64,000 bases of DNA from a virus: the IMG/VR virus record IMGVR_UViG_3300032087_006376, positions 32,001 to 96,000 of that record. The stretch is one strand, 5' to 3'. Shown piece after piece: positions 1,317 through 51,689 of this stretch (within the stretch, counting starts at the first letter, position 1; each line of letters starts with the position of its first letter). The notes below the pieces were generated by a model, which worked only from the letters and a program-made list of their open reading frames with translations, searched no databases and was not told where the DNA came from. The position numbers and the translations under genes were made by a program.

Positions 1317-1941
1317 AGACGATAAAAAACAGAAATATATATGTTTCGATTTTGAAACTTGTAATTTAAACTTGCTTAGCCCAGACAATAAACCTTGGCA
1401 ATTAAGCTATATAATCGCACAAGGGTACAAGATCGTAAAAGAAAAAGATTGCTATATAAAATGGCCTGACTTAAAACTTTCAGAAGAAGCTAGAAAAATT
1501 ACTAGATTTGATGATAAAAAATACAATAGACTAGCTCAAGACCCTAAGAAAGTTTTAGAAGAATTTGAATCTTATTTATACGACAAAGATTACATTATAG
1601 TCGGCCAAAACCTTTTAGGTTTTGATGTTTACATCCACAACATATATAGAAAACTGTTAGGATTAGATTCAGATTTTTCTTATATAAATAGAATTTACGA
1701 TACTAACTGTGTAGCTAAAGCTATTAAAAAAGGAATGAAAACTCCCAGCAGTTTAGATAAGTTTATTCAATGGCAGTATAGGCTCAACGATTTCAGAGAA
1801 AGAAACTTAAGAACCAGCATAAAAGCTCAACTTAAGCAGTATAAAATAGATTTCGATGAAAACAAATTGCATGACTCCTTGTATGATGTTCAAATGAATT
1901 TGAAAATATTTCGCAAACAATTAATACAGATAGATTTATGA
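1309..1941 (+). CDS. DEDDh 3'-5' exonuclease (DnaQ/epsilon-like proofreader)
   Basis: ExoI FDFETC, ExoII GQNLLGFD, ExoIII HDSLYDV. ATG at 1309 overlaps the PHP stop and is preferred over 1225. Confidence 0.85.
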   Translation: MLKDDKKQKYICFDFETCNLNLLSPDNKPWQLSYIIAQGYKIVKEKDCYIKWPDLKLSEEARKITRFDDKKYNRLAQDPKKVLEEFESYLYDKDYIIVGQNLLGFDVYIHNIYRKLLGLDSDFSYINRIYDTNCVAKAIKKGMKTPSSLDKFIQWQYRLNDFRERNLRTSIKAQLKQYKIDFDENKLHDSLYDVQMNLKIFRKQLIQIDL

Positions 1942-4502
1942 GTTTTTTAGATGATATAAAGCAATACGATAACGCAATGATGCCCGGAGTAAGATTGCCG
2001 AGCATCAAAATAGAAAACAAGTATTACAAAAAGCTCAATCTCGATAGTAATGTCGATAATTTTAATTTTTTAAAAGCTTTATGTTATTCTAAAATCACAA
2101 CTGCACAGTTTCAATCTGAAGAATATCAAAGCCGCCTCTCAATGGAGCTTGATATTTTTAAAGAGCTTGAGTTTGTTGATTATGTTTTACTTAATTGGGA
2201 CATTCTTAATTTTTGTCACGAAAATAAAATTCCAACTGGTCCGGGTAGAGGGAGTGCCGCAGGATCATTGGTTTTATTTCTAATTGGAGTCACTAAGGTT
2301 GACCCCATTAAGTACGGATTATTTTTCGAAAGATTTGTTTCTAGATCTAGAGCTAAAAAAATCATAAAAGATGGCATTACCTATCTAGAAGGATCCCTTC
2401 TCCCTGACGTTGACAATGATATTAGTTACGACAGAAGATCTGAGGTCATCGAGTATATCGAAAAAAAGCATTACGGAAAAACCGCTAAAATTTTAACGCT
2501 TAATACTCTTTCTAGTAAATTATGCATAAAAGAATGTGGAAAAATAGTAGGCGAATATTCTGAGTCTGAAGTTAATGAAGTAAGTGACTGTATTCCGAAA
2601 ATCTTTGGAAAAGTTATGCCTCTGGTTGACTCGTACAAAGAAAATGAAAAATTTAAAGAGTGGGTTGATTTAAATAAGAAAACTTTTGCTATAGCCAGAA
2701 AAATAGAAAGCTTAAACAAAAATACTGGAGTTCATCCGTCAGGTATTGCAATTTCATATTATGACATTCAAGAAATTTGTCCTTTACAAAAAACTAGTGA
2801 GGGAGATTTTGTCACTGGATATGATATGAATTACGTATCTGAGTTGATGGTTAAATTTGATGTTTTAGGCTTAAGAACTTTAACTGTAGTAGATAGAGTC
2901 TGTAAATCTCTAGGCATTGAGATGACCTCTATTGATGTGTCTGATAAAAATATTTACAAAAACTTCAAAGACCTAAAAACTCCTCAAGGTTTGTTTCAAA
3001 TTGAAGCTGACACTAATTACAGAGTTTGCAAAAAAGTAAGACCAAGAAATCTTGAAGAACTCAGTGCCGTAGTAGCTTTAGCTAGACCCGGAGCTTTAGA
3101 TTTTACAGATGAATATGCTTTATACACAAGCAGCGGTCAATTTGGGCTAGTTCATGATTTTTTTGAAGAGGAACTTTCTTACACTGCTGGAATTCCGCTA
3201 TATCAAGAGCAATTGATGAAGATGGCTGTAAAAATTGGATTTACTTTAGATGAAGCCGAGCAGCTTAGAAGAATAGTGGGTAAGAAAAAAGTTGATCAAA
3301 TGCCAGCTTGGAAGGAGAAAATTTCTAAAAAAATCTCAGAAAATAATTTGGATCCTAAAATAGGTGAAGTTTTATGGAAAGTTGCAGAAGATTCAGCTAA
3401 TTACAGCTTTAATAAATCTCATAGTATATCTTATGCCACACTTTCTGCTTGGACGGCGTATTTAAAGTTTAATTACCCTCAAGATTTTTATTTAGCATTA
3501 TTAGAATTATCAAAATACGAACCAGATTCTCATGCCGAAATAAGCAAGATATCTCAAGAGTTAGTTCATTTTGACATGCAATTGCTTTCTCCAGATTTGT
3601 CCAAATCATCTTTAGACTTTTCAAAAGAAGGAAACAACATAAGATTCGGTTTAAACGCCATTAAAGGCGTCTCAGAGAAAAGCTTACAGGCTTTAGAGAG
3701 CTTCAGAGGCTCCAACAAAGCTAATAAGTTTGAAACGTTTCTAGCAGCAAAAGAGGCTAAAATCAATATCGGGCTTTTATCTGCTTTAATTCAAGCTGGA
3801 ACTTTAGAATCTCCCGAAAATCGTTCTAGATCTGGACTGGTTATGGAAGCGCAAGTTTTCAATATATTAACAGATAAAGAAAAAGCTTACGCTTTGAGTG
3901 TTGCGGAAAAATATAACTTTGATATTTTACAAATCGTTTTTCAAGCGGCGTTCGACCCAGATAAACCTGACGCTAAAAGAAGTGACGGTAAACCGTTCAT
4001 GACTGAAAAAAGAAAAACCACTTTCAAGAAAAAATACAATGAGTATAAAAAAATCTATTCCCAAAATAAAGGTAATGAAGATTTTGCTAATTGGTATTTT
4101 GAAAATAAACTACTTGGCTACAACCCCTCAGTTAAATTAAAATCAGTATTTAAAGAAAGCCAGAGTAACTTTACAGATTGCTTACAATTAGACTCAGTAT
4201 TTAACGGAGACTCTGTTAAAATAGTAGCCATAGTAGAAGATGTTTATAAAAGTAAATCAAGAAAATCTAATTCTACTTTTTATAAATTCCAAGTTAGCGA
4301 TGAATCAGGGCGCACGAACGCTTTGTTCATGGATAGCCCTAAAGTTAAGAGGTTAACTAACTACATAGAAAAAGGTAATAAGATTCCAGAAAAAGAAGAC
4401 ATTATAGTCTTTACAGGCAAAAAAGGAGATGATATAGTTTGGGTAGATAACATAAATATTTTAGAAAATAAAATATACATGAAGTTATCAGATGTGGAAT
4501 GA
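1938..4502 (+). CDS. dnaE: DNA polymerase III alpha catalytic subunit lacking the PHP domain
   Basis: GPGRGSAAGSLV, LFFERF, LPDVDND, KNTGVHPSG, KFDVLGL, YSFNKSHS and a C-terminal OB fold. Confidence 0.95.
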   Translation: MSFLDDIKQYDNAMMPGVRLPSIKIENKYYKKLNLDSNVDNFNFLKALCYSKITTAQFQSEEYQSRLSMELDIFKELEFVDYVLLNWDILNFCHENKIPTGPGRGSAAGSLVLFLIGVTKVDPIKYGLFFERFVSRSRAKKIIKDGITYLEGSLLPDVDNDISYDRRSEVIEYIEKKHYGKTAKILTLNTLSSKLCIKECGKIVGEYSESEVNEVSDCIPKIFGKVMPLVDSYKENEKFKEWVDLNKKTFAIARKIESLNKNTGVHPSGIAISYYDIQEICPLQKTSEGDFVTGYDMNYVSELMVKFDVLGLRTLTVVDRVCKSLGIEMTSIDVSDKNIYKNFKDLKTPQGLFQIEADTNYRVCKKVRPRNLEELSAVVALARPGALDFTDEYALYTSSGQFGLVHDFFEEELSYTAGIPLYQEQLMKMAVKIGFTLDEAEQLRRIVGKKKVDQMPAWKEKISKKISENNLDPKIGEVLWKVAEDSANYSFNKSHSISYATLSAWTAYLKFNYPQDFYLALLELSKYEPDSHAEISKISQELVHFDMQLLSPDLSKSSLDFSKEGNNIRFGLNAIKGVSEKSLQALESFRGSNKANKFETFLAAKEAKINIGLLSALIQAGTLESPENRSRSGLVMEAQVFNILTDKEKAYALSVAEKYNFDILQIVFQAAFDPDKPDAKRSDGKPFMTEKRKTTFKKKYNEYKKIYSQNKGNEDFANWYFENKLLGYNPSVKLKSVFKESQSNFTDCLQLDSVFNGDSVKIVAIVEDVYKSKSRKSNSTFYKFQVSDESGRTNALFMDSPKVKRLTNYIEKGNKIPEKEDIIVFTGKKGDDIVWVDNINILENKIYMKLSDVE

Positions 4503-6916
4503 AAAATTATAATTTAACTCCTAGAGCTCAAAAATTAATTAAAGAAGCTCATAAAATAGCTACAGATCTTGAGTATTATCAATTAAATAATGTTCACTTG
4601 CTGTTAGCTTTTTTAAAAATTCCAAACAATCAAATTTTAGACGCTTTTGACCAATTCGAAGTGAGCTATGATCTCGTTGAGAAGGCTTGTCTTTTTACTT
4701 TAAATAAACCCAAGCTTAGAAATAGCCAATCAGCTTCTAGATCCAAGCTGTCTTCCATCACTAGAAAAGTTTTTTCTTCTGCTAAACAATTATCAAACAA
4801 GTATGATCATAAATATATAGGATTAGAGCATATATTTTTGTCGCTGTTTGGTGAAACAGACATCTTTTTAAGAGATGTAATAGCTAACTTGCAAATTAAT
4901 TACGACGCTATATTTGATTATGTCGAAAGAAAGCTAGAAGAAAGTGATTTATTGCCTTCTTCAATTTACGAAGAAGAAGCTGATGAAGAGCAGGATCAAA
5001 AAAAATCTCAATTTAATCCCAAGAATTATAAGTTTTTAAATGAATATGCTACTAATTTAAATTCTCAAGTCATACAAGGAAAAATAACCTCTCTCCATAT
5101 TAACAAAAGTCTAATAAAAAAGATTTCTGAAGTTCTTTGTAGAAAAAATAAAAATAACCCATTAGTTGTTGGAGAAGCTGGCGTAGGAAAAACTGCATTA
5201 GTAGAATCTTTAGCGCAAGCAATTGTAGATGGAGAATGTTCTGATTTCTTAGTAATGAAACATATTTACAATTTAGACGTTCCGATGATTATCGCCGGTT
5301 GTAAATATAGAGGAGAGTTTGAAGAAAAGATTAAAAATATTTTAAAAGAAATTGTAAACGATCCATTCATCGTGTTGTTTATTGATGAAATTCATACGAT
5401 AATCGGAGCAGGTAACCCGGAAAACGGCATGGATGTCGCAAACATTCTTAAACCTTATTTAGCTAGAGGCGAAATTAGCTGCATAGGGGCGACAACTTTC
5501 GACGAATATAAACGCACTATTGAGGGAGACCCAGCTTTATCTAGAAGGTTTCAAATGATAAAGATGGAAGAACCTACGAAAAAAGAAGTTTTTCAGTTAA
5601 TTAAAAATATTAAAAATTCTTATGAAGATTTTCATTTAATGAATTTCTCAGATGAAACAATAAAATTCACAATCGACGTAGCTGATAAATATCTAGAAGG
5701 CAGATTCCCAGATAAAGCCTTAGATATCATAGATCAAGTTGGAGCTAAAACAAAACTTAAAAATTTTACAAAAACTCCAGAAATGATTTCTATTGAAGAA
5801 AAAATAAAAGATCTTTCATCAAAGCAAGATAAGCTAGCTAAAAACACATTCCTTAAAAGAATGAATTCTTTGATAAAAAAATATCAAACTATAACTGAAA
5901 AACTTTTTAACAAATGGAAAGATTCTAGATACAGAATTAAACAGGCAGATATCTTAGAAGTTGTATCAGATAAAACTAACATTCCAATTTCAGACTTAAA
6001 AAAACAAGACTCTAAAAAAATAAAAGACCTTAGAGATTCATTGAAGACTGAAGTTTTAGGTCAAACAGATCAAATAGATCAAATATACAAATGTTTACTA
6101 AGGGCAAAAGCTGGCTTTAGGAACGATAAAAAACCAGTATCATCATTACTTTTAGCTGGTCCGACAGGTGTCGGCAAAACCATGACTGCAAAAATTATTG
6201 CCAACAGCTTATTCCCGAATAAAAACAACTTTATATTTTTAGATTTAACAGAATACACAGACCAAACAGCCGTCAATAAATTAATTGGATCTAGCCCGGG
6301 TTATATCGGCTACGGCAAAGGAGGCATACTAACTGAAAAAGTTTCTAGAAACCCATACTCTTTAATTCTTTTCGACGAAATCCAAAAAGCTCACAAAGAT
6401 GTATTATATTTACTGCTTCAAATACTTGAAGAGGGAAAGATATCAGATTCTTTAGGTAAAGAAGTTGATTTTTCCAATTCCATAGTAGTGATGACAACAA
6501 ACATAGGATCAGATATAGCTAATTCCTCTGTTATTGGTTTCAACAAAGAAAACTCTAATATATCTAACGATATCGTAAACTCTGTCAAAAAACATTTTCC
6601 AGCAGATCTATTAAACAGAATAGACGAAGTAATACCCTTTAGCCCCCTAAAAGAAGATCATATTAAGAGTATTATAATCAAGAACTTAGATAAATTTAAA
6701 ACTGAAATGAAAAACAAAAATCTTTCTTTAAATTACTCTAGTAAAATTCTTGATTATGTTTATAAAAAAATACAATTCAATAATTTTGGAGCTAGGCAAG
6801 TTTTAAAAACAGTGCAGAGAGAAATTCAAACTTTAGTTGCTGAAAAAATACTAGATAATCCAAAAACTTCTGAATTAAAAATGTGTGTCAAAAACAATAA
6901 AATATGTGTAATATAA
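4499..6916 (+). CDS. clpC: ClpA/ClpC-type AAA+ chaperone
   Basis: Clp N repeats; NBD1 GEAGVGKT, LFIDEIH and RFPDKALD; NBD2 GPTGVGKT, LIGSSPGYIGY and LFDEIQKAH; FGARQV. Confidence 0.9.
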   Translation: MKNYNLTPRAQKLIKEAHKIATDLEYYQLNNVHLLLAFLKIPNNQILDAFDQFEVSYDLVEKACLFTLNKPKLRNSQSASRSKLSSITRKVFSSAKQLSNKYDHKYIGLEHIFLSLFGETDIFLRDVIANLQINYDAIFDYVERKLEESDLLPSSIYEEEADEEQDQKKSQFNPKNYKFLNEYATNLNSQVIQGKITSLHINKSLIKKISEVLCRKNKNNPLVVGEAGVGKTALVESLAQAIVDGECSDFLVMKHIYNLDVPMIIAGCKYRGEFEEKIKNILKEIVNDPFIVLFIDEIHTIIGAGNPENGMDVANILKPYLARGEISCIGATTFDEYKRTIEGDPALSRRFQMIKMEEPTKKEVFQLIKNIKNSYEDFHLMNFSDETIKFTIDVADKYLEGRFPDKALDIIDQVGAKTKLKNFTKTPEMISIEEKIKDLSSKQDKLAKNTFLKRMNSLIKKYQTITEKLFNKWKDSRYRIKQADILEVVSDKTNIPISDLKKQDSKKIKDLRDSLKTEVLGQTDQIDQIYKCLLRAKAGFRNDKKPVSSLLLAGPTGVGKTMTAKIIANSLFPNKNNFIFLDLTEYTDQTAVNKLIGSSPGYIGYGKGGILTEKVSRNPYSLILFDEIQKAHKDVLYLLLQILEEGKISDSLGKEVDFSNSIVVMTTNIGSDIANSSVIGFNKENSNISNDIVNSVKKHFPADLLNRIDEVIPFSPLKEDHIKSIIIKNLDKFKTEMKNKNLSLNYSSKILDYVYKKIQFNNFGARQVLKTVQREIQTLVAEKILDNPKTSELKMCVKNNKICVI

Positions 6917-8152: not shown

Positions 8153-9310
8153 ATGAGTGATTTTAATCCAATCTATGATGTCGGTGCAGATAATGAGCCT
8201 GATGCAGGTAACAATGACACTTTTGACTTTGCAATGCCTGACATTCCAGAGCCAACTCAAGAAGAAAAAGTCGAACTAAAAGATAAAGATGCAGTAGGTT
8301 TTAAGTTTGGCTTTATTGGCGCTGGCCAAGGCGGGGGTAAATTAGCCGAAACTTTTTCTAAAATAGGCTACGCAAGAGTTGGAGTAATTAACACAGCTGA
8401 CCAAGATCTGGCCACGTTGAATGTTAAAAACAAATTAAAATTTGGAGAACAACAAGGAGCTGGCAAAAATAGAGGTATTGCCAAGCAAGCTTTTGCTGAA
8501 AATAAAGAAGATGTTGTTGACTTCATTAAAGATTCTATCGGTACAGATATTGATAGAATTTTTGTAACAATTGGAGCTGGAGGTGGTACTGGTGCTGGCG
8601 TTTCCTCTGAGTTAGTTAAAACTGTTCATGAATATCAACAAACAGTAAAAGCTTCATCTCCATATGTAGGTTTAATTTTAGCTTTACCCAAACTATCTGA
8701 GGGCAAAAAAGTTAGCTTAAATGCTTATGAAACTTTAAAAGAAGCGTGTGACTTGGTAGATAAAAAAATAGTTTCACCTTTAATTATTTTAGACAACGAA
8801 AAAATTAATACTCTTTACCCTAAATTATCGATAAATAAGTTCTGGCAAGTAGCAAATGCCAACATTTGTTCGCTGTTTCATTTATTCAATAATATTATTA
8901 CAAAAAATAGTCAGTATAGCACTTTTGACACTAATGATTTCAGAACCGTTTTAGATTCTGGCATTATGGTTTTTGGAGCGACAAATATTAACGACACAGG
9001 TAGTGAATCCGCAATTTCTAAAGCTGTTAGAGATAACCTTAAAAGAAACGTTTTATGCGGAGAATTAGACCTATCTACAGGCGTTGTAGCGGCATCTGTT
9101 GCTATAGGTGACGAAGAAACTCTTGATAACATTCCACAGGAATATATAGATGGAGCTTTTAATCAACTAAATAGAACTTTAAAAACGAATAGCACAGTAC
9201 ATCAAGGTATTTATAAAGGAGCTAAAAAAGGCTTGTCTTTATTTACGGCAATTGGAGGCATATCTACTCCAGAAGATAAGCTGGAATCACTTCTTAAATC
9301 GTCTCAATAA
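8153..9310 (+). CDS. Tubulin/FtsZ-family GTPase (PhuZ/TubZ-like)
   Basis: FIGAGQGGGKLA, INTA and the signature GAGGGTGAG; LDNEK; FDTND T7-like loop; acidic N-terminal extension. Confidence 0.9.
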   Translation: MSDFNPIYDVGADNEPDAGNNDTFDFAMPDIPEPTQEEKVELKDKDAVGFKFGFIGAGQGGGKLAETFSKIGYARVGVINTADQDLATLNVKNKLKFGEQQGAGKNRGIAKQAFAENKEDVVDFIKDSIGTDIDRIFVTIGAGGGTGAGVSSELVKTVHEYQQTVKASSPYVGLILALPKLSEGKKVSLNAYETLKEACDLVDKKIVSPLIILDNEKINTLYPKLSINKFWQVANANICSLFHLFNNIITKNSQYSTFDTNDFRTVLDSGIMVFGATNINDTGSESAISKAVRDNLKRNVLCGELDLSTGVVAASVAIGDEETLDNIPQEYIDGAFNQLNRTLKTNSTVHQGIYKGAKKGLSLFTAIGGISTPEDKLESLLKSSQ

Positions 9311-16901: not shown

Positions 16902-18086
16902 ATGGATATATTAAGAATAACTGGAGCAAAAAGTCTTTGGCACTATTTTAAATTCACATTTTCAGCTTGTTACCGCAAACAACTGCAGGTTGAAAAAGCC
17001 AAACAACAGCAGACATTAAACGAATTAATATTAAAAGATAAACTTCTTGAAGAAACAAGTCTTATTAGTAAAGCTGATGCTAAAGGTAGAATTACTTATG
17101 CAAATGATAAGTTTTTAAAAGTTACTGGGTACACTTTAGAAGAATGTATTGGCCAAGACCACAATATTGTTAACTCAGGTCATCACCCAAAAGAAGTATG
17201 GGTAGACATGTACAAAACTGTTGTTAAAGAAAAAAAGATTTGGCATCATCCATGTGTTGTTAATAAATCTAAAGATGGCAAACTTTATTATGTTAAATCG
17301 TGGATTCAAGGTGAATTTGATTTATCAGGTAAATTAAAAGGTTTTATAAGTATTAGGCACGACATCACAAGTTTAATAAATCAACAAAAAGAAATTTCTG
17401 AAAAAAATACTTACTTAGAACATGCCGCCAAAATTCTTCGCCACGACATGCATAGCGGTATAAACACTTACATTCCAAGAGGTGTTTCTTCTTTAAAAAG
17501 AAGGTTAACTGACGAAGCTATCAAAGAGCTTAAATTAGAAGCGCCATTAAAACTAATACAAGAAGGACTAACTCACACTCAAAAAGTCTATAAAGGCGTT
17601 TATGAATTTAGTAATTTAGTTAGACAAGATAATGAACTAAACAAAGAAAAAGTAGATTTAAAGGCTATACTTTTAGATTATTTATCTAGCACGTCTTATG
17701 CTGATCAAGTTTTGATTAACGACCTACCCACAATGCCAGTGAATGAAGCTTTATTTTGTACTGCAATAGATAATTTAATTCGAAATGGCTTAAAATACAA
17801 CGATTCTGACACTAAGAAAGTAGAAATATTCTATAGTAAAAGTACTCACGATCTTTTCATAGAAGACAACGGTAGAGGTTTAACTCAGAAAGATTTAGAA
17901 TTCTTAATGAAACCTTATACCAGAAAAGCTGATCAAAAAGAATCCGGTTCTGGTTTAGGATTAAATATATGTATAGCTATCTTAGAACAACACAATTTTA
18001 AAGTTTCATGCGAAAAGCTTCCGGCACCTTATACAGGCACAAGATTTAAAATAGATCTAGGAAAAATTTCAGAATATAAAATTTAA
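16902..18086 (+). CDS. PAS-domain sensor histidine kinase
   Basis: PAS (ISKADAKGRITYANDKF, NSGHHP, FISIRHDIT), H-box ILRHDM, N-box DNLIRNGLKY, G1 IEDNGRG, G2 GSGLGLNIC. Confidence 0.93.
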   Translation: MDILRITGAKSLWHYFKFTFSACYRKQLQVEKAKQQQTLNELILKDKLLEETSLISKADAKGRITYANDKFLKVTGYTLEECIGQDHNIVNSGHHPKEVWVDMYKTVVKEKKIWHHPCVVNKSKDGKLYYVKSWIQGEFDLSGKLKGFISIRHDITSLINQQKEISEKNTYLEHAAKILRHDMHSGINTYIPRGVSSLKRRLTDEAIKELKLEAPLKLIQEGLTHTQKVYKGVYEFSNLVRQDNELNKEKVDLKAILLDYLSSTSYADQVLINDLPTMPVNEALFCTAIDNLIRNGLKYNDSDTKKVEIFYSKSTHDLFIEDNGRGLTQKDLEFLMKPYTRKADQKESGSGLGLNICIAILEQHNFKVSCEKLPAPYTGTRFKIDLGKISEYKI

Positions 18087-19158: not shown

Positions 19159-20760
19159 ATGGGGGAACTGCATACCATAGCCAGTAATGGTAATTTAAAT
19201 GTTATAAAGAAAGCGCTTTCTAAAGATAAAGACGCTTTTCTTGCTATTGATGAAGAAATGGGCTGGTCACCGCTTCACTACGCAGCAAATAAAAGCAAAA
19301 CTAAAATTGTAGAAGCTATTTTAGAAGCCGGAGTAGACCCAAATATTCCAAGTGTTCCTCCTCCAAAATACAAACAAAATTCTTGGAATTTAGCTATGGA
19401 GTTAGACGAAGGCAACGTCGATCCCGTTGTTTATCCTCTTGATGTTGCAGACGGACCTTCTCGAACCACTGTATTTAAAACTTTGCTGATGTATGGAGCA
19501 ACTTTTTTTGGTGATGAAATTACTTTGCATCAAGCTGTACAGTTAGATGATATGGATGAAGTTCAGGGGCTACTAGAAGATGAAAGCTTAAGGATTAACG
19601 CTAGAGATAACAGAGGCTGGATGGCAATTCATTATGCTGTAGACCTTGGAAATATGGAGATGCTTAAGGTTTTAATAGCTCATAAAGCTAATGTCAACGG
19701 CTCTACCTACGCAAAAGACGCTACAATGCATTTCAATGCTTGGGAGATAGCTAACCTTAAAAATGACGAGGTAATGCTTAAGTATTTAGAATCCAAAGGG
19801 GCTAAGCGTCACCCCGGCATACAGCAAAATCAAAGAGCTTCATTAAAAAGTCAAACTAAATTATATAACACTTCAAAATCTGACTTAAATATGTCAGCAG
19901 TTAGAGAAAAGCTCAGAGAAAGAGAAGCTTCTTTCAAAAAAGCCCCTAAAGCTCCCGAAGGGTTTCTTGGTAAACTGTTTGAAAATAAACATGATAAAGA
20001 AAAAAGATTAGCTTTAGAAGCTCTTGCTGAAAAAGAAAGATTAAAAGCGGAACAAGAAAAAAAAGAAAAACAAGAAGAACAAGAAAGAAAAAGAAAAGAA
20101 CAGCAAGTTATAAAGTGGGCCGGAGGCGTAGATCCTTTTAAATTAAAAGGTCAGTCAATAACTTATGATCAACAATGTGAGGCACACACTTATTTTATGG
20201 ATATAGTTGGCTATTCTAAAAAAAGTACAACAGAACAAAAACAAGTTTCAGACGAGTTAGTTCGCATTGTTAAAGGAACTGAAAGTTTTCAAAAAGCAGA
20301 TAAAAAAGGTAAATTAATTATTTTACCTACTGGAGACGGCATGGCTTTAGTTTTCTTTGATTCTATTCATACTGCATTTAAATGCGCTATAGATGTAGGC
20401 ATGAGGACTTACAAACACGCTCAGATAGGTTTACGTCACGGCGTTTATACTGGGCCTGTAGTACCCGTTAAAGATATCAATGATAATCCAAATGTGTCTG
20501 GTACAGGAATAAATATGGCTCAACGTTGTATGGACGCAGGAGATAATGATCATATTTTAATATCAGATCATGTTTGTCAGTATGTAAAAGAAACTTCTGT
20601 AGCGGGAATAAAATTTGAGGATTGGGGGCCGGTAGTCGTTAAGCATGGCGCTACAGTACATATGTGGACAGTGTTTGGTCCTAATTTTGGCAGACAAGAG
20701 TTTCCACACTGGAGAGGTGTTAAAAGATTAGAGTATAAAGAAGAGGAAGAAGATCAGTAA
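19159..20760 (+). CDS. Ankyrin-repeat / coiled-coil / class III nucleotidyl cyclase fusion
   Basis: Ankyrin GWSPLHYAA, TLHQAV and GWMAIHYAV; cyclase FMDIVGYS, PTGDGMALVF and GTGINMAQRCMD. Confidence 0.88.
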   Translation: MGELHTIASNGNLNVIKKALSKDKDAFLAIDEEMGWSPLHYAANKSKTKIVEAILEAGVDPNIPSVPPPKYKQNSWNLAMELDEGNVDPVVYPLDVADGPSRTTVFKTLLMYGATFFGDEITLHQAVQLDDMDEVQGLLEDESLRINARDNRGWMAIHYAVDLGNMEMLKVLIAHKANVNGSTYAKDATMHFNAWEIANLKNDEVMLKYLESKGAKRHPGIQQNQRASLKSQTKLYNTSKSDLNMSAVREKLREREASFKKAPKAPEGFLGKLFENKHDKEKRLALEALAEKERLKAEQEKKEKQEEQERKRKEQQVIKWAGGVDPFKLKGQSITYDQQCEAHTYFMDIVGYSKKSTTEQKQVSDELVRIVKGTESFQKADKKGKLIILPTGDGMALVFFDSIHTAFKCAIDVGMRTYKHAQIGLRHGVYTGPVVPVKDINDNPNVSGTGINMAQRCMDAGDNDHILISDHVCQYVKETSVAGIKFEDWGPVVVKHGATVHMWTVFGPNFGRQEFPHWRGVKRLEYKEEEEDQ

Positions 20761-44748: not shown

Positions 44749-45429
44749 ATGAAAGATTTAATATATACTCGCCGAAATAGTTTGCCTAAAGATTTTTGTG
44801 ATTTTGTTATAAATAAATTTGAAACATCAACAGATAACCAAATGGAAGGATTGTCTGGAGATGCTGTTCAAACTCAAATAAAAAAGTCTACAGATTTAAT
44901 GTTGACCAATTTTTTAGATGATGCAGACTGGTCATATATTTATAATTATTTATCAGAAGAACTTCTGCAAAGCTTAGTTGAATATAATGAAAATGCACCT
45001 TGGATTTGGAGAAGGCAAGGAGGTTTTTCTAGTAAACTTAGTTTAGTTAGGTCTGTTCAAAATAGATTCACTGCTTCCAGTAATGGCAATTACCACATGC
45101 AAATGCAAAGATACATCGGTGATGAAGGTTATTACGCTTGGCACTTTGAAAACTACTTAGAACATGAACGTATGAGAAAAAGACAAATGGCTTTCATGTG
45201 GTATTTAAACGATCTTGAAAGCGGTGGCGAAACTGAATTCAAATTTCAAAAAACAAAAGTTAAACCAGAAGCTGGTAAAAGCGTTTTATTTCCAGCGTTC
45301 TGGACTCACACCCACAGAGGAAATCCTCCTTCTGGAAATCAAAGAAAATACATCATAACTGGATGGATAGAACAAAACACAGAAGAAGAGAACGCGTCTA
45401 ACGAGTTTACAGAAGACTTTTTTGTTTAA
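44749..45429 (+). CDS. 2OG-Fe(II) oxygenase (prolyl-hydroxylase-like)
   Basis: YAWHFE, FMWYLND..SGGETEF, FPAFWTHTHRG, KYIITGW. Confidence 0.88.
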   Translation: MKDLIYTRRNSLPKDFCDFVINKFETSTDNQMEGLSGDAVQTQIKKSTDLMLTNFLDDADWSYIYNYLSEELLQSLVEYNENAPWIWRRQGGFSSKLSLVRSVQNRFTASSNGNYHMQMQRYIGDEGYYAWHFENYLEHERMRKRQMAFMWYLNDLESGGETEFKFQKTKVKPEAGKSVLFPAFWTHTHRGNPPSGNQRKYIITGWIEQNTEEENASNEFTEDFFV

Positions 45430-47060
45430 TGAATGTGTTAGAGCGGAGTTCTCCATTATTAATTCCCACATATAGGTTTAATTGTTTTGATCAGTATTTA
45501 GATTCTTTAAGCAAATCCGACAGGTATGATATTAAAAAATCTCTATCGGATAATTCTTATTTAAAATATGAAGAATCTTTTTATTCATATGAAGATTGCA
45601 AAAAATTCATGGATATTTGGTCGCAATCTAATCAATCTAGCTGGGGCGACTGGTACTCACAAAAAGAATTAGATACTTTACACAGCAAAGGAGTTTTAAA
45701 ATGTTTTGTATGTGAGGATATAGCTTATCATTTTGTTTTAAATTGGGGTAATTATGTTTATTGTAACGCTCCACTATATAACAAAAATTTGTATTTGCAA
45801 AATCAAATCGCAAAATATATGTGGTCTAACTTAATAAAAAACTACATAGAAAATAGCGACGTACATTATATTGATTTAATGGGGCCTGAAAATTTTATTA
45901 CTTACGGACAAGTAATTCAAAATAAAGCTAAAATTAGCGATAAAGGCGACTTTGGTTATAAATGGAGGTTTATACCTAAAGAGATAAAAAATGGAACTGA
46001 TAAAGTATTGTCAGATTTAAAAATAGTATCAGATCAAACTTTTAATTGGAAAGGTATTGAGTTGCCTTCTAAACCAAGCAAACTACTAATTGTGGCTCAT
46101 CCAGATGACGAAGCCATCTTTTTTGGTGGATGGTTATTAAATAATGCAGCGCATACTAAAGTTGTGTGCTTAACTTGTTCTAAAGATCCAGTGAGGTTTA
46201 AAGAATTGCAAGATAGTTTAAAATGTGCTGGAGTAAATTATTTTGAATGTTTAAACCAAGAAGCCACCCAAGATTTTTTTGAAAATAAAGATTATATTTT
46301 AGAAAATTTAACCCGGATAAAAAGCGAAACTGATTGGACGGAAATTATCACTCATAACATATATGGAGAGTACGGTCACTTACAACACATACAAACTCAC
46401 GAACTAGTTAAAACCGTATTTAACAATGATAAAATTTTTGTTTACTACAATTTTAAAGACAAAACAATAAATATTAATAAATACAGTTTACTAGAAAAGC
46501 ATAAAAGTCAACAACAATTTGGAATAAACGAAATAAAAGATAGTGAATGCACCGGTTCTGATTGGTACAAACACACAGTCAATAAAAATATGATAGATCA
46601 TGAATCTATTATCGCACTATCAAAATTTAAAAATACATTAAAGATAAATTTAATTTGGACTCAAAGCGAAAACCATGTTTTATTTGATATTATCAAAGGA
46701 GTCCATCGTCAACTACGCAATAGAGGTCACGAAGTTGTTATCGCTAAATCTTTTCCTTTTAATAAAGCAGATGTCAATATTACATTTTGCAGAGAAGATT
46801 CTTTACAATGCTTAGAAAATAACGCACAATACTTTTTTGTTATAAATGATGAAATGATGGTTGTCAAAAACAATTACAATGAGTATAATAATTTGATAGA
46901 TAAATCTATTCGTAGTTTTGTAAAAACTCGAAAAATCCGAGACGAACTTGGGGATAGATTAAATTTAGTTTGGGTGCCTGTATTAAGAGAGTGGAGCGTG
47001 TTCATCAGAAAGTTTGAGTCGCATATATATATGGGTTTAGTGTCGCAAAATAAAATATGA
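45429..47060 (+). CDS. Fusion of GNAT/FemAB-like domain, PIG-L (LmbE) deacetylase and a C-terminal domain
   Basis: N-terminal FDQYLDSLSKSDRYDIKK...YIDLMG...YKWRF; central LIVAHPDDEAIF, IITHN.YGEYGHLQH. Confidence 0.65.
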   Translation: MNVLERSSPLLIPTYRFNCFDQYLDSLSKSDRYDIKKSLSDNSYLKYEESFYSYEDCKKFMDIWSQSNQSSWGDWYSQKELDTLHSKGVLKCFVCEDIAYHFVLNWGNYVYCNAPLYNKNLYLQNQIAKYMWSNLIKNYIENSDVHYIDLMGPENFITYGQVIQNKAKISDKGDFGYKWRFIPKEIKNGTDKVLSDLKIVSDQTFNWKGIELPSKPSKLLIVAHPDDEAIFFGGWLLNNAAHTKVVCLTCSKDPVRFKELQDSLKCAGVNYFECLNQEATQDFFENKDYILENLTRIKSETDWTEIITHNIYGEYGHLQHIQTHELVKTVFNNDKIFVYYNFKDKTININKYSLLEKHKSQQQFGINEIKDSECTGSDWYKHTVNKNMIDHESIIALSKFKNTLKINLIWTQSENHVLFDIIKGVHRQLRNRGHEVVIAKSFPFNKADVNITFCREDSLQCLENNAQYFFVINDEMMVVKNNYNEYNNLIDKSIRSFVKTRKIRDELGDRLNLVWVPVLREWSVFIRKFESHIYMGLVSQNKI

Positions 47061-48188: not shown

Positions 48189-48465
48189 AAGATATAATAA
48201 AACAAGTTTTAGATGAATACAGTGAGAATCATAGGCAAATAAATCTTGACAGCGAAGCTGCAAGGGTTATATTATCAGAACAAATAGCAGAAAGAATAGA
48301 GTTATGGCAAAATCAAAAGGATCTAGCAAACACCAAGAAAAACGCGGATTAAATAAAAAAATCAGCAACATGAAGGGAAGACATTCTAAAAACAATTCTT
48401 CTCGAAATAAGCAGAGTAAAAATTATAAAAAACCTTATAACAGACAAGGTAGATAATTAATTTAT

Positions 48466-48552
48466 GCCAGTGTGGTGAAATTGGCAAACACAACAGACTT
48501 AAAATCTGTCGCCCGTTCGGGCTTGTCGGTTCGAGTCCGACCACTGGTACCA
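48466..48552 (+). tRNA. tRNA-Leu(UAA)
   Basis: GCCAGTG/CACTGGT, ACAGA-cttaaaa-TCTGT, long variable arm, CCA. Confidence 0.95.
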
Positions 48553-48561
48553 CTTCTTTTC

Positions 48562-48654
48562 GCCCCTATAGCTTAATGGTAAAGCGTCCGTCTTATACAC
48601 GGTTGAACTCTAGATGTGAGTATGTTGTAGGTTCGAGTCCTACTAGGGGTACCA
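48562..48654 (+). tRNA. Atypical 93-nt tRNA with UAU anticodon (nominal Ile) and a long variable arm
   Basis: GCCCCTA/TAGGGGT, D arm GCTT/AAGC, CCGT-cttatac-ACGG, 23-nt variable region with ACTC/GAGT stem, GTAGG-ttcgagt-CCTAC, ACCA. Confidence 0.8.
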
Positions 48655-48673
48655 ATTTATAAATATAATTTAT

Positions 48674-49048
48674 ATGAGCGAAGAGTTTAAAAATAAATTA
48701 GAAAAATATCATTATATACGCAAATTAGAAAAAGCAGAGCGTACAATGAAAGATATTGTTGCTAAATGTGACACTGAAATACAAAGGATAAAAAGATACA
48801 AACCTCTTCCTATTACTTCGCGTTATAGAAAAAAACACGATATCGATTATCACCCTCCTACTTGTGGATTTGTTCACCGCTTTTCACTCGATCCAGATTT
48901 CCTTGGCTCTCACGAAGAATGGCATCAAGCTTTCGAAAGATTCGAAAAAAAGAAAGTAAACATATATGGTAAAAAAGTAGATCGTAGCAAGGTTTTCGCA
49001 GATAAACAAGAAATTAAAAATTTTAAATATGGAAAAAAGTCTCGATAG
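48674..49048 (+). CDS. Hypothetical protein, KKVNIYGKKVDR family member 1
   Basis: EEWHQAFERFEKKKVNIYGKKVDRSK. Confidence 0.6.
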   Translation: MSEEFKNKLEKYHYIRKLEKAERTMKDIVAKCDTEIQRIKRYKPLPITSRYRKKHDIDYHPPTCGFVHRFSLDPDFLGSHEEWHQAFERFEKKKVNIYGKKVDRSKVFADKQEIKNFKYGKKSR

Positions 49049-51612: not shown

Positions 51613-51689
51613 GGGCCTTTAGCTCAGTTGGTTAGAGCATCCGACTCATAATCGGCAGGTCGCAGGTTCGAGCCCTGCAAGGCCCACCA
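51613..51689 (+). tRNA. tRNA with CAU anticodon, most likely tRNA-Ile2 (lysidine type)
   Basis: GGGCCTT/AAGGCCC, CCGA-ctcataa-TCGG. The body resembles bacterial Ile2 rather than initiator or elongator Met. Confidence 0.85.

Follow-up and report, generated by a model that had tools for sequence, protein, structure and literature searches.

A five-arm phage tRNA(UAU) family whose additional arm displays GAU, and its possible bearing on the reading of AUA

In bacteria, AUA is the sole sense codon that no plain anticodon can read. Textbooks give two ways around this: lysidine (TilS) and, in rare cases, a tRNA with the anticodon UAU together with a co-evolved isoleucyl-tRNA synthetase (IleRS). The closest known tRNAs with this anticodon are the TilS-independent tRNA-Ile2(UAU) of Mycoplasma mobile, reported by Taniguchi et al. 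(2013; PMC3575796), and a tRNA-Ile(UAU) suppressor of B. subtilis (PMC3919564), both of which combine UAU with U33 and A37, as does the tRNA described here, and read AUA without lysidine. Both face the same problem, namely that ordinary bacterial IleRS charges UAU poorly: IleRS reads G34 or lysidine-34, E. coli IleRS charges UAU poorly, and its relative preference for UAU is roughly 100-fold below that of M. mobile IleRS (PMC3575796). In M. mobile the charging was solved by the enzyme, through Arg865 in IleRS (PMC3575796); Arg or Lys at the Trp905 position marks an IleRS adapted to U34. Both tRNAs are ordinary class I molecules without an extra arm, whereas the present tRNA carries an additional hairpin that displays GAU.

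A stem-loop between the anticodon arm and the T arm, as found here, is known from class II tRNAs and from the nematode nev-tRNA-Ile(UAU) (PMC3333845), in which UAU and an extra arm are likewise combined, although on a Leu-type body and in nematodes only. Mukai et al. (2017, PMC5389517) likewise reported UAU together with a long extra arm, and 'possible five-stem-junction structures', for the (8/4) allo-tRNA(UAU) found in soil metagenomes and in Acidobacteria. In the main text of that report these allo-tRNAs are abundant, Ser identity is assumed, and neither a GAU-displaying loop nor a phage form with a class I body is described. No published description of a five-arm tRNA(UAU) with a GAU arm was found in the full-text literature.

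The DNA analysed here (the window) is a stretch of 64,000 nt from an IMG/VR virus record of 127.7 kb, whose G+C content is 33% and whose completeness is estimated at 88%, and the same DNA is present in seawater and marine biofilm metagenomes of several studies. The following features were located, with positions numbered from the first base of the window and the basis of each given in parentheses.

48562..48654, + strand: tRNA(UAU) gene, whole, 93 nt, CCA encoded (ARAGORN, Rfam, family model R1, minimum-free-energy fold)
48588..48602, + strand: anticodon arm, 4 standard pairs, loop CUUAUAC with U33, A37 and C38 (sequence, Rfam, ARAGORN, minimum-free-energy fold)
48594..48596, + strand: anticodon UAU, reader of AUA (ARAGORN)
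48607..48621, + strand: extra arm, stem ACUC/GAGU (48607-48610/48618-48621), 7-nt loop UAGAUGU (covariation, column counts, natural variants)
48613..48615, + strand: GAU at positions 3-5 of the extra-arm loop, corresponding to the anticodon position (conservation in the family)
48622..48626, + strand: ordinary 5-nt variable loop AUGUU with the equivalents of G46 and U48 (family spacing, 15:48 pairs)
48466..48552, + strand: tRNA-Leu(UAA), a normal class II tRNA 9 nt upstream of tRNA(UAU) (ARAGORN, Rfam)
51613..51689, + strand: CAU tRNA, probably of the lysidine-dependent tRNA-Ile2 type (87% identity over the full length to a CAU tRNA of an E. coli prophage)
48246..48275, + strand: promoter-like site TTGACA-16/18-TATATT, 11/12, about 190 nt upstream of both tRNAs (consensus scan alone, the number of sites being not above that in shuffles)

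The original prediction, made from the sequence alone, had described a 93-nt cloverleaf with the anticodon UAU, and this was confirmed at 48562-48654 (+) by ARAGORN, which called it tRNA-Ile(tat) and placed the anticodon at tRNA position 33. The sequence and the ARAGORN drawing also agreed with it on the 23 nt between the anticodon stem and the T stem, on the ACUC/GAGU stem therein, and on the ends of the molecule (G1.U72, A73 and encoded CCA), and the tRNA-Leu(UAA) gene indeed ends at 48552, leaving a gap of 9 nt. G1.U72 and A73 are thus present as described but proved to have no diagnostic value, since many isoacceptors of these phages commonly have G1.U72 and A73 fits Ile and Leu alike. Against Rfam RF00005 the gene scored 62.9 bits (gathering score, 29; E = 2.7e-11), as a member of the tRNA family, and against the covariance model of the present family (R1) it scored 94.2 bits. 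Its minimum-free-energy fold is the five-arm cloverleaf (-25.5 kcal/mol). A U27.U43 mismatch (48587/48603) tops the anticodon arm, and 27:43 is Y.Y in 27 of the 89 distinct family members. The tRNA-Leu(UAA) and tRNA(UAU) genes are probably co-transcribed; a single metatranscriptome contig of low depth (263 nt, depth 2), which may be DNA, covers 48475-48737 unspliced. Among the contigs of the sequencing runs, the only material searched in this respect, no junction skipping either hairpin of tRNA(UAU) was found.

The class II, Leu-like character suggested by the original prediction was not borne out, because the molecule has a class I D arm, a full 5-nt variable loop after the hairpin, and GAU in the hairpin loop. 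A class II tRNA has a 3-bp D stem, an enlarged D loop, a Leu, Ser or Tyr anticodon, and only 1-2 nt between the long arm and the T stem. The neighbouring tRNA-Leu shows this arrangement (3-bp D stem, 11-nt D loop, about 2 nt after the long arm), whereas tRNA(UAU) has a 4-bp D stem, a 7-nt D loop (ARAGORN) and the 5 nt AUGUU before the T stem. The spacer after the extra hairpin is 5-6 nt long in 89/89 family members and forms a complete variable loop N-N-G46-N-Y48, in which 15:48 covaries (A15:U48 in 75 and G15:C48 in 8 of the 89). The tRNA(UAU) has the body of a class I tRNA-Ile, to which a fifth arm is added as a 4-bp hairpin between the anticodon stem and the 5-nt variable loop. Compared with class II tRNAs and nev-tRNA, it differs in its class I D arm, in the position of the extra arm 5' of a complete variable loop, in the conserved GAU sequence of the arm loop, and in the occurrence of AUA at Ile columns of phage proteins; nev-tRNAs have a Leu-type class II body and nematode genomes, in place of the class I body and phage genome found here. 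In contrast to the allo-tRNAs, which have 8/4 or 9/3 acceptor/T arrangements and a tRNA-Sec-like D arm, it has the canonical 7-bp acceptor stem, 5-bp T stem and normal D arm.

The five-arm design is widespread, being present in more than 150 viral contigs, three cultured phages of Lactobacillaceae and some bacterial contigs. Members were defined by a UAU anticodon loop, then a 3-5-bp hairpin with a 7-nt loop Y-A-G-A-U-N-R, then a variable loop of 5-6 nt. The window tRNA belongs to the family by its loop UAGAUGU and its stem ACUC/GAGU with C-G at the second pair; the last base of its arm loop, the equivalent of position 38, is U, shared by only 3/89 members, where the usual family base is A. 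Two exact-pattern scans of viral contigs without constraint on the arm (D arm plus anticodon loop, and anticodon arm plus T loop with a long gap) gave a tRNA(UAU) of 91-96 nt in 21/21 loci. The family pattern, in which AGAT was imposed, matched at least 119 viral contigs, and a loose pattern (TTATA, a gap of 12-42 nt, and a T arm) gave 39 new tRNA(UAU), 23 of them long and 16 short. In species-representative bacterial genomes, 24 more members were present among the first 120 matches listed; the bacterial members lie mostly in tRNA arrays or MAG contigs, with a few in isolate chromosomes. The carrier phages are very diverse (marine, soil and Lactobacillaceae phages), and the cultured ones are the Herelleviridae phages Semele, ENFP1 and Lpa804. 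The members sit in ordinary phage tRNA clusters, where they fill the AUA slot of near-complete tRNA sets, and a separate tRNA-Ile(GAU) is also encoded in 57 of 178 partial loci, often adjacent.

Several variants were observed in the course of these scans. The member in Lactobacillus phage Lpa804 carries no annotation (L476 378-471, corresponding to MG557979.1 about 105720-105813, minus strand; 90.1 bits to R1; arm loop CAGAUUA). A subgroup with a minimal D arm (4-nt loop, 1 nt after the acceptor stem) bears the same GAU arm (L067, L073, L077, L108, L117, L120, L150, L175, L217, L226, L243, L250 and L343), and may in part be the same as the allo-tRNA(UAU) that Mukai et al. described in 2017. 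In the 99-nt form of Hydrocarboniphaga effusa AP103 (L269 831-929), the GAU arm has 7 bp and the anticodon loop is enlarged. In the viral members L439 and L440 (tRNA upstream of the CCAGATTAG match), the anticodon loop is CCUAUAC, with C33. A tmRNA is located at L019 6230-6616, on a viral contig that also bears a family member.

The arm and its GAU are under selection, as judged from covariation and base conservation. In the R1 alignment (97 matches, 89 distinct), which was fitted to the model and so leans towards structure, 98.6% of the cells were paired against 65.7% in shuffles, a large margin, and every tRNA helix covaried. All four arm pairs showed compensatory changes and were 96.6% paired, a value that dropped to 36-52% once the 3' partners were slid by 1-3 columns. 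Seawater variants of the same phage combine 48607 A>G with 48621 U>C, by which the outer arm pair changes from A-U to G-C. Since AGAT is imposed by the family pattern, AGAU was counted on 40 unique long tRNA(UAU) from the scans without loop constraint, and [A/U]GAU was present in 39 of them (AGAU, 37; UGAU, 2; other, 1). The second arm pair, which was not imposed by any pattern, is C-G in 88/89 members.

The extra hairpin occurs only with the UAU anticodon. It was absent from about 2000 unique bystander tRNAs of the same loci, where NAGANNN matches occurred at chance level only; no Leu, Ser or Tyr tRNA in these loci carried such an arm, and none of the 79 long Leu tRNAs had a hairpin like it. 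Conversely, a scan with the arm and the T loop, in which the anticodon was left unconstrained, yielded 82 new unique contexts, with a UAU loop in 77. The other five comprised two with CCUAUAC, one cut by the contig end and two that are not tRNAs, so that UAU was present in 77/77 interpretable new tRNA contexts from this arm-only pattern.

The loop of the extra arm was compared with the anticodon loop of tRNA-Ile(GAU). GAU occupies positions 3-5 of the 7-nt arm loop, which is the anticodon register, and phage tRNA-Ile(GAU) of the same loci has YUGAUAA as its anticodon loop. Common to both are a C29-G41-type pair and the loop pattern Y-N-G-A-U-N-A. The nearly invariant C-G of the arm is the equivalent of 29:41, and C29-G41, which is listed for E. 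coli as a minor determinant for IleRS (PMC9976931), is present in 57% of phage tRNA-Ile(GAU) and in 10% of other tRNAs. With position models of 34 groups from which the triplet was left out, the arm stem scored best with Ile(GAU) (+2.6 bits), followed by short Ile(UAU) (+1.0), and the remaining 32 groups were all negative; the first rank of Ile(GAU) is suggestive, the ranking being noisy in controls. When two family members were compared with GenBank phages by BLAST, no match reached E <= 1e-6. With the looser threshold that was needed, the part of one member from the arm to the 3' end aligned with the part from the anticodon arm to the 3' end of a Felix O1-like 76-nt tRNA-Ile(GAU). In phage wV8 (Felix O1-like; EU877232.1, 27243-27318), whose 76-nt tRNA-Ile shares its D-stem type, G1.U72 and A73 with the window tRNA, these parts agree at 81-83%. 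In the multiple alignment against tRNA-Ile(GAU), a gap of about 20 nt coincides with the UAU hairpin.

From the GAU register, the C-G pair, the stem models and the alignment gap, we infer that what was called a 'variable arm' is the counterpart of the tRNA-Ile(GAU) anticodon arm. On these alignments it is the UAU hairpin, about 20 nt, that has no counterpart in ordinary tRNA-Ile(GAU). When this hairpin was compared with CAU tRNAs, with an origin from the arm of tRNA-Ile2(CAU) in mind, the best BLAST matches were confined to the T arm and acceptor. The likeness of the arm to a true Ile loop is incomplete: the GAU loop has A in place of U33 and U, G or A in place of A37, whereas the UAU loop keeps both U33 and A37.

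The tRNA set and codon usage of the phage are in keeping with a function in translation. ARAGORN found five tRNAs within the window and the whole record encodes six (Arg UCU, Leu UAA, UAU, Thr UGU, CAU and Lys UUU), all of which except CAU read A-ending codons, which the phage uses heavily; AUA makes up 1060 of its 2639 Ile codons (40%). The E. coli prophage tRNA that matches the CAU tRNA at 51613-51689 is annotated as tRNA-Ile by RefSeq, and the phage gene is probably a lysidine-dependent tRNA-Ile2, a second likely reader of AUA in the same phage. Neither TilS nor a class Ia synthetase was found when the phage record was searched for them.

The amino acid expected at AUA was examined in the ClpC-like gene of the phage. 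Ile makes up 60%, Val 19% and Leu 12% of the residues in the homologue columns to which its 33 AUA codons align, while AUU columns are 72% Ile and UUA columns 62% Leu. AUA thus stands at Ile columns, like AUU and unlike UUA, which shows the phage to be written with AUA as Ile and gives no support to the earlier suggestion that AUA is read as Leu by mistranslation or recoding. The E. coli Ile identity set (A73, C4-G69, U12-A23 and C29-G41; PMC9976931) is complete in the window tRNA, and in the family it was found as A73 in 87/87, U12-A23 in 79/89, C4-G69 in 61/89 and C29-G41, counted in the real anticodon arm, in 31/89. Further E. coli determinants are G34 or lysidine-34, A35, U36, t6A37 and A38 (PMC9976931); two of these are missing from the anticodon loop of the window tRNA, which has U34 and C38. 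Its extra arm has G, A and U in register, and after them G where position 37 would fall and U where 38 would. The tRNA(UAU) is likely to be charged with Ile. Among the three options of the original prediction, namely reading of AUA as Leu, reading of AUA without lysidine, and resistance to host anticodon nucleases, the second emerged as the likeliest.

In the explanation favoured here, the product of the gene is probably a working phage tRNA by which AUA is translated as Ile with no need for lysidine. The tRNA would serve an AT-rich marine phage with AUA-heavy Ile codons; its UAU arm would be engaged by the ribosome for decoding, and host isoleucyl-tRNA synthetase may take the GAU arm as an identity handle, for which this arm would probably have to stack in the anticodon position by way of an alternative conformer. 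IleRS as the partner of the GAU arm is proposed tentatively. About as tentative is the complete division between identity and decoding, in which IleRS would read the GAU arm, probably in a conformer that places it in the anticodon position, and the ribosome the UAU arm. A phage cannot change the IleRS of its host, and the GAU arm is a plausible handle for an enzyme that charges UAU poorly; the phage record without TilS and without a class Ia synthetase is in line with this. The arm keeps the equivalents of G34, A35 and U36 and a C29-G41-type pair but lacks U33 and A37, and thus does not offer what ribosomal decoding needs.

Several findings speak against the arm as a handle for IleRS. The mimicry is imperfect, with a conserved A at the U33 site and a variable U, G or A at the site of t6A37, which is a strong determinant for the IleRS of E. 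coli (PMC9976931). Of the 39 phage tRNA(UAU) from the loose pattern, 16 do without the arm, and C29-G41 is found in just 57% of phage tRNA-Ile(GAU) genes. The Ile2-type CAU tRNA in the same phage means that there is no strict need for a lysidine-free reader of AUA. In complexes with class I synthetases, the variable-loop side of the tRNA faces solvent, so that IleRS could reach the arm only after rearrangement.

An alternative is a partner other than IleRS, for which the arm would be selected while the tRNA still inserts Ile at AUA. The candidates are the ribosome (for instance, A-site tuning against U34 reading AUG), an enzyme modifying U34 or A37 that is recruited or repelled, EF-Tu, RNase P, or a tRNA nuclease or toxin of the host, which the arm would evade or decoy. 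Such a partner would account for the motif being AGAU, not the UGAU of the true Ile loop, with an A that is nearly invariant (37/40 where not imposed), and for the 37-equivalent of the arm not being conserved; a fidelity problem also exists, in that UAU reads AUG besides AUA on E. coli ribosomes (PMC3575796). It is nevertheless judged less likely, as it leaves unexplained the exact Ile triplet, the anticodon register, the 7-nt loop and the Ile-type C-G pair, and as the partner would have to be universal in view of the very diverse carriers; an inspection by eye for a complement to AGAU inside tRNA(UAU) found none. A further proposal is that the gene has no use in translation, being a relic or pseudogene, or that its tRNA-like product serves in regulation, in priming or in connection with a toxin. 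That proposal draws on the report that six allo-tRNA(UAU) changed to CUA gave no Ser or Ala suppression and that two were toxic, for which non-translational roles were proposed (Mukai et al., PMC5389517, main text). A failed Ser146 suppression would equally be expected from Ile insertion, however, and the covariation of every tRNA helix far above shuffles, the retention of U33, UAU and A37, the canonical CCA, A73 and T loop, and the filling of the AUA slot in ordinary tRNA clusters, in a phage heavy in AUA, make a role outside translation highly unlikely.

The long arm might also confer class II (Leu or Ser) identity, with AUA read partly or wholly as Leu or Ser, in the manner of the nematode nev-tRNA-Ile(UAU). 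Judged by E. coli Leu identity, A73 and A15:U48 are compatible with bacterial LeuRS. The nev-tRNAs are moreover leucylated in vitro (PMC3333845, PMC4300185). This explanation nonetheless retains only a very slight probability, because AUA lies at Ile columns and is indistinguishable there from AUU and AUC, because the D arm is of class I and a full 5-nt variable loop follows the arm, and because no Leu, Ser or Tyr tRNA of the same loci has the arm, which itself shows GAU. Least probable of all is a two-headed tRNA, in which both hairpins decode as alternative conformers and read AUA, AUC and AUU. The joins on either side are canonical (D arm-N26-UAU arm, and GAU arm-5-nt variable loop-T arm), and UGAU, with a true U33, occurs in 2/40 members. 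U33 and a purine at position 37 have an established role in normal decoding, with which the A33 and non-purine 37 of most arm loops are incompatible, and a separate tRNA-Ile(GAU) is encoded in 57 of the 178 partial loci.

If IleRS does read the GAU arm and the ribosome the UAU arm, phages could decode AUA in any host without TilS or an adapted synthetase, and this would be the first natural tRNA in which the 'anticodon' recognised by the synthetase is physically apart from the decoding one. Five-arm phage tRNAs that show the other Ile anticodon would, as a large unannotated family, amount to a third way of reading AUA, one portable between hosts, and an arm that serves as a synthetase handle would be a natural uncoupling of tRNA identity from the anticodon. 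This would bear on the evolution of identity sets, on why phages carry tRNAs, and on orthogonal tRNAs for reassignment of the AUA sense codon. Annotation pipelines at present call the family genes plain tRNA-Ile or overlook them, as with the unannotated Lpa804 copy.

The surroundings of the gene were also inspected. A 50-aa ORF that is extremely rich in Lys, Arg and Ser (48304-48456) lies between the promoter-like site at 48246-48275 and the two tRNAs, and it may share a transcript with them. With a neighbouring protein of 543 aa as the lone query, no match was obtained in viral contigs; an alignment of its homologues covered 10 loci at 33-52% identity, and a tRNA(UAU) within 10 kb was found in 0/10, which, these being fragments, is no evidence of absence. 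Two records of such loci gave only generic tRNA scores (<=52.6 bits) with model R1. An unusual set of proteins is encoded at 1938-4502, 4499-6916, 8153-9310, 16902-18086, 19159-20760 and 45429-47060, namely DNA polymerase III alpha, a double AAA+ ATPase that is ClpC-like and shares about 60% identity with cellular ClpC, a tubulin/FtsZ-family protein, a PAS-histidine kinase, an ankyrin-repeat protein and a PIG-L/LmbE-domain protein. Closer relatives of the phage exist, with a ClpC-like protein that is 92-96% identical.

Two further observations concern the other tRNAs of the collected loci. A first pair of G1.U72 or A1-U72 is very common among the tRNAs of loci L001-L369 (Glu, 79%; Trp, 65%; Leu CAA, 51%; Val, 48%; Arg ACG, 47%). 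Genes for tRNA-Leu of 77-79 nt, a length that leaves no room for the long variable arm of class II, are present in several phage clusters, including those of Felix O1-like phages (L001 2820-2897, 3508-3584 and 4684-4760; L007 3510-3754; L475 3875-3951 and 4453-4530).
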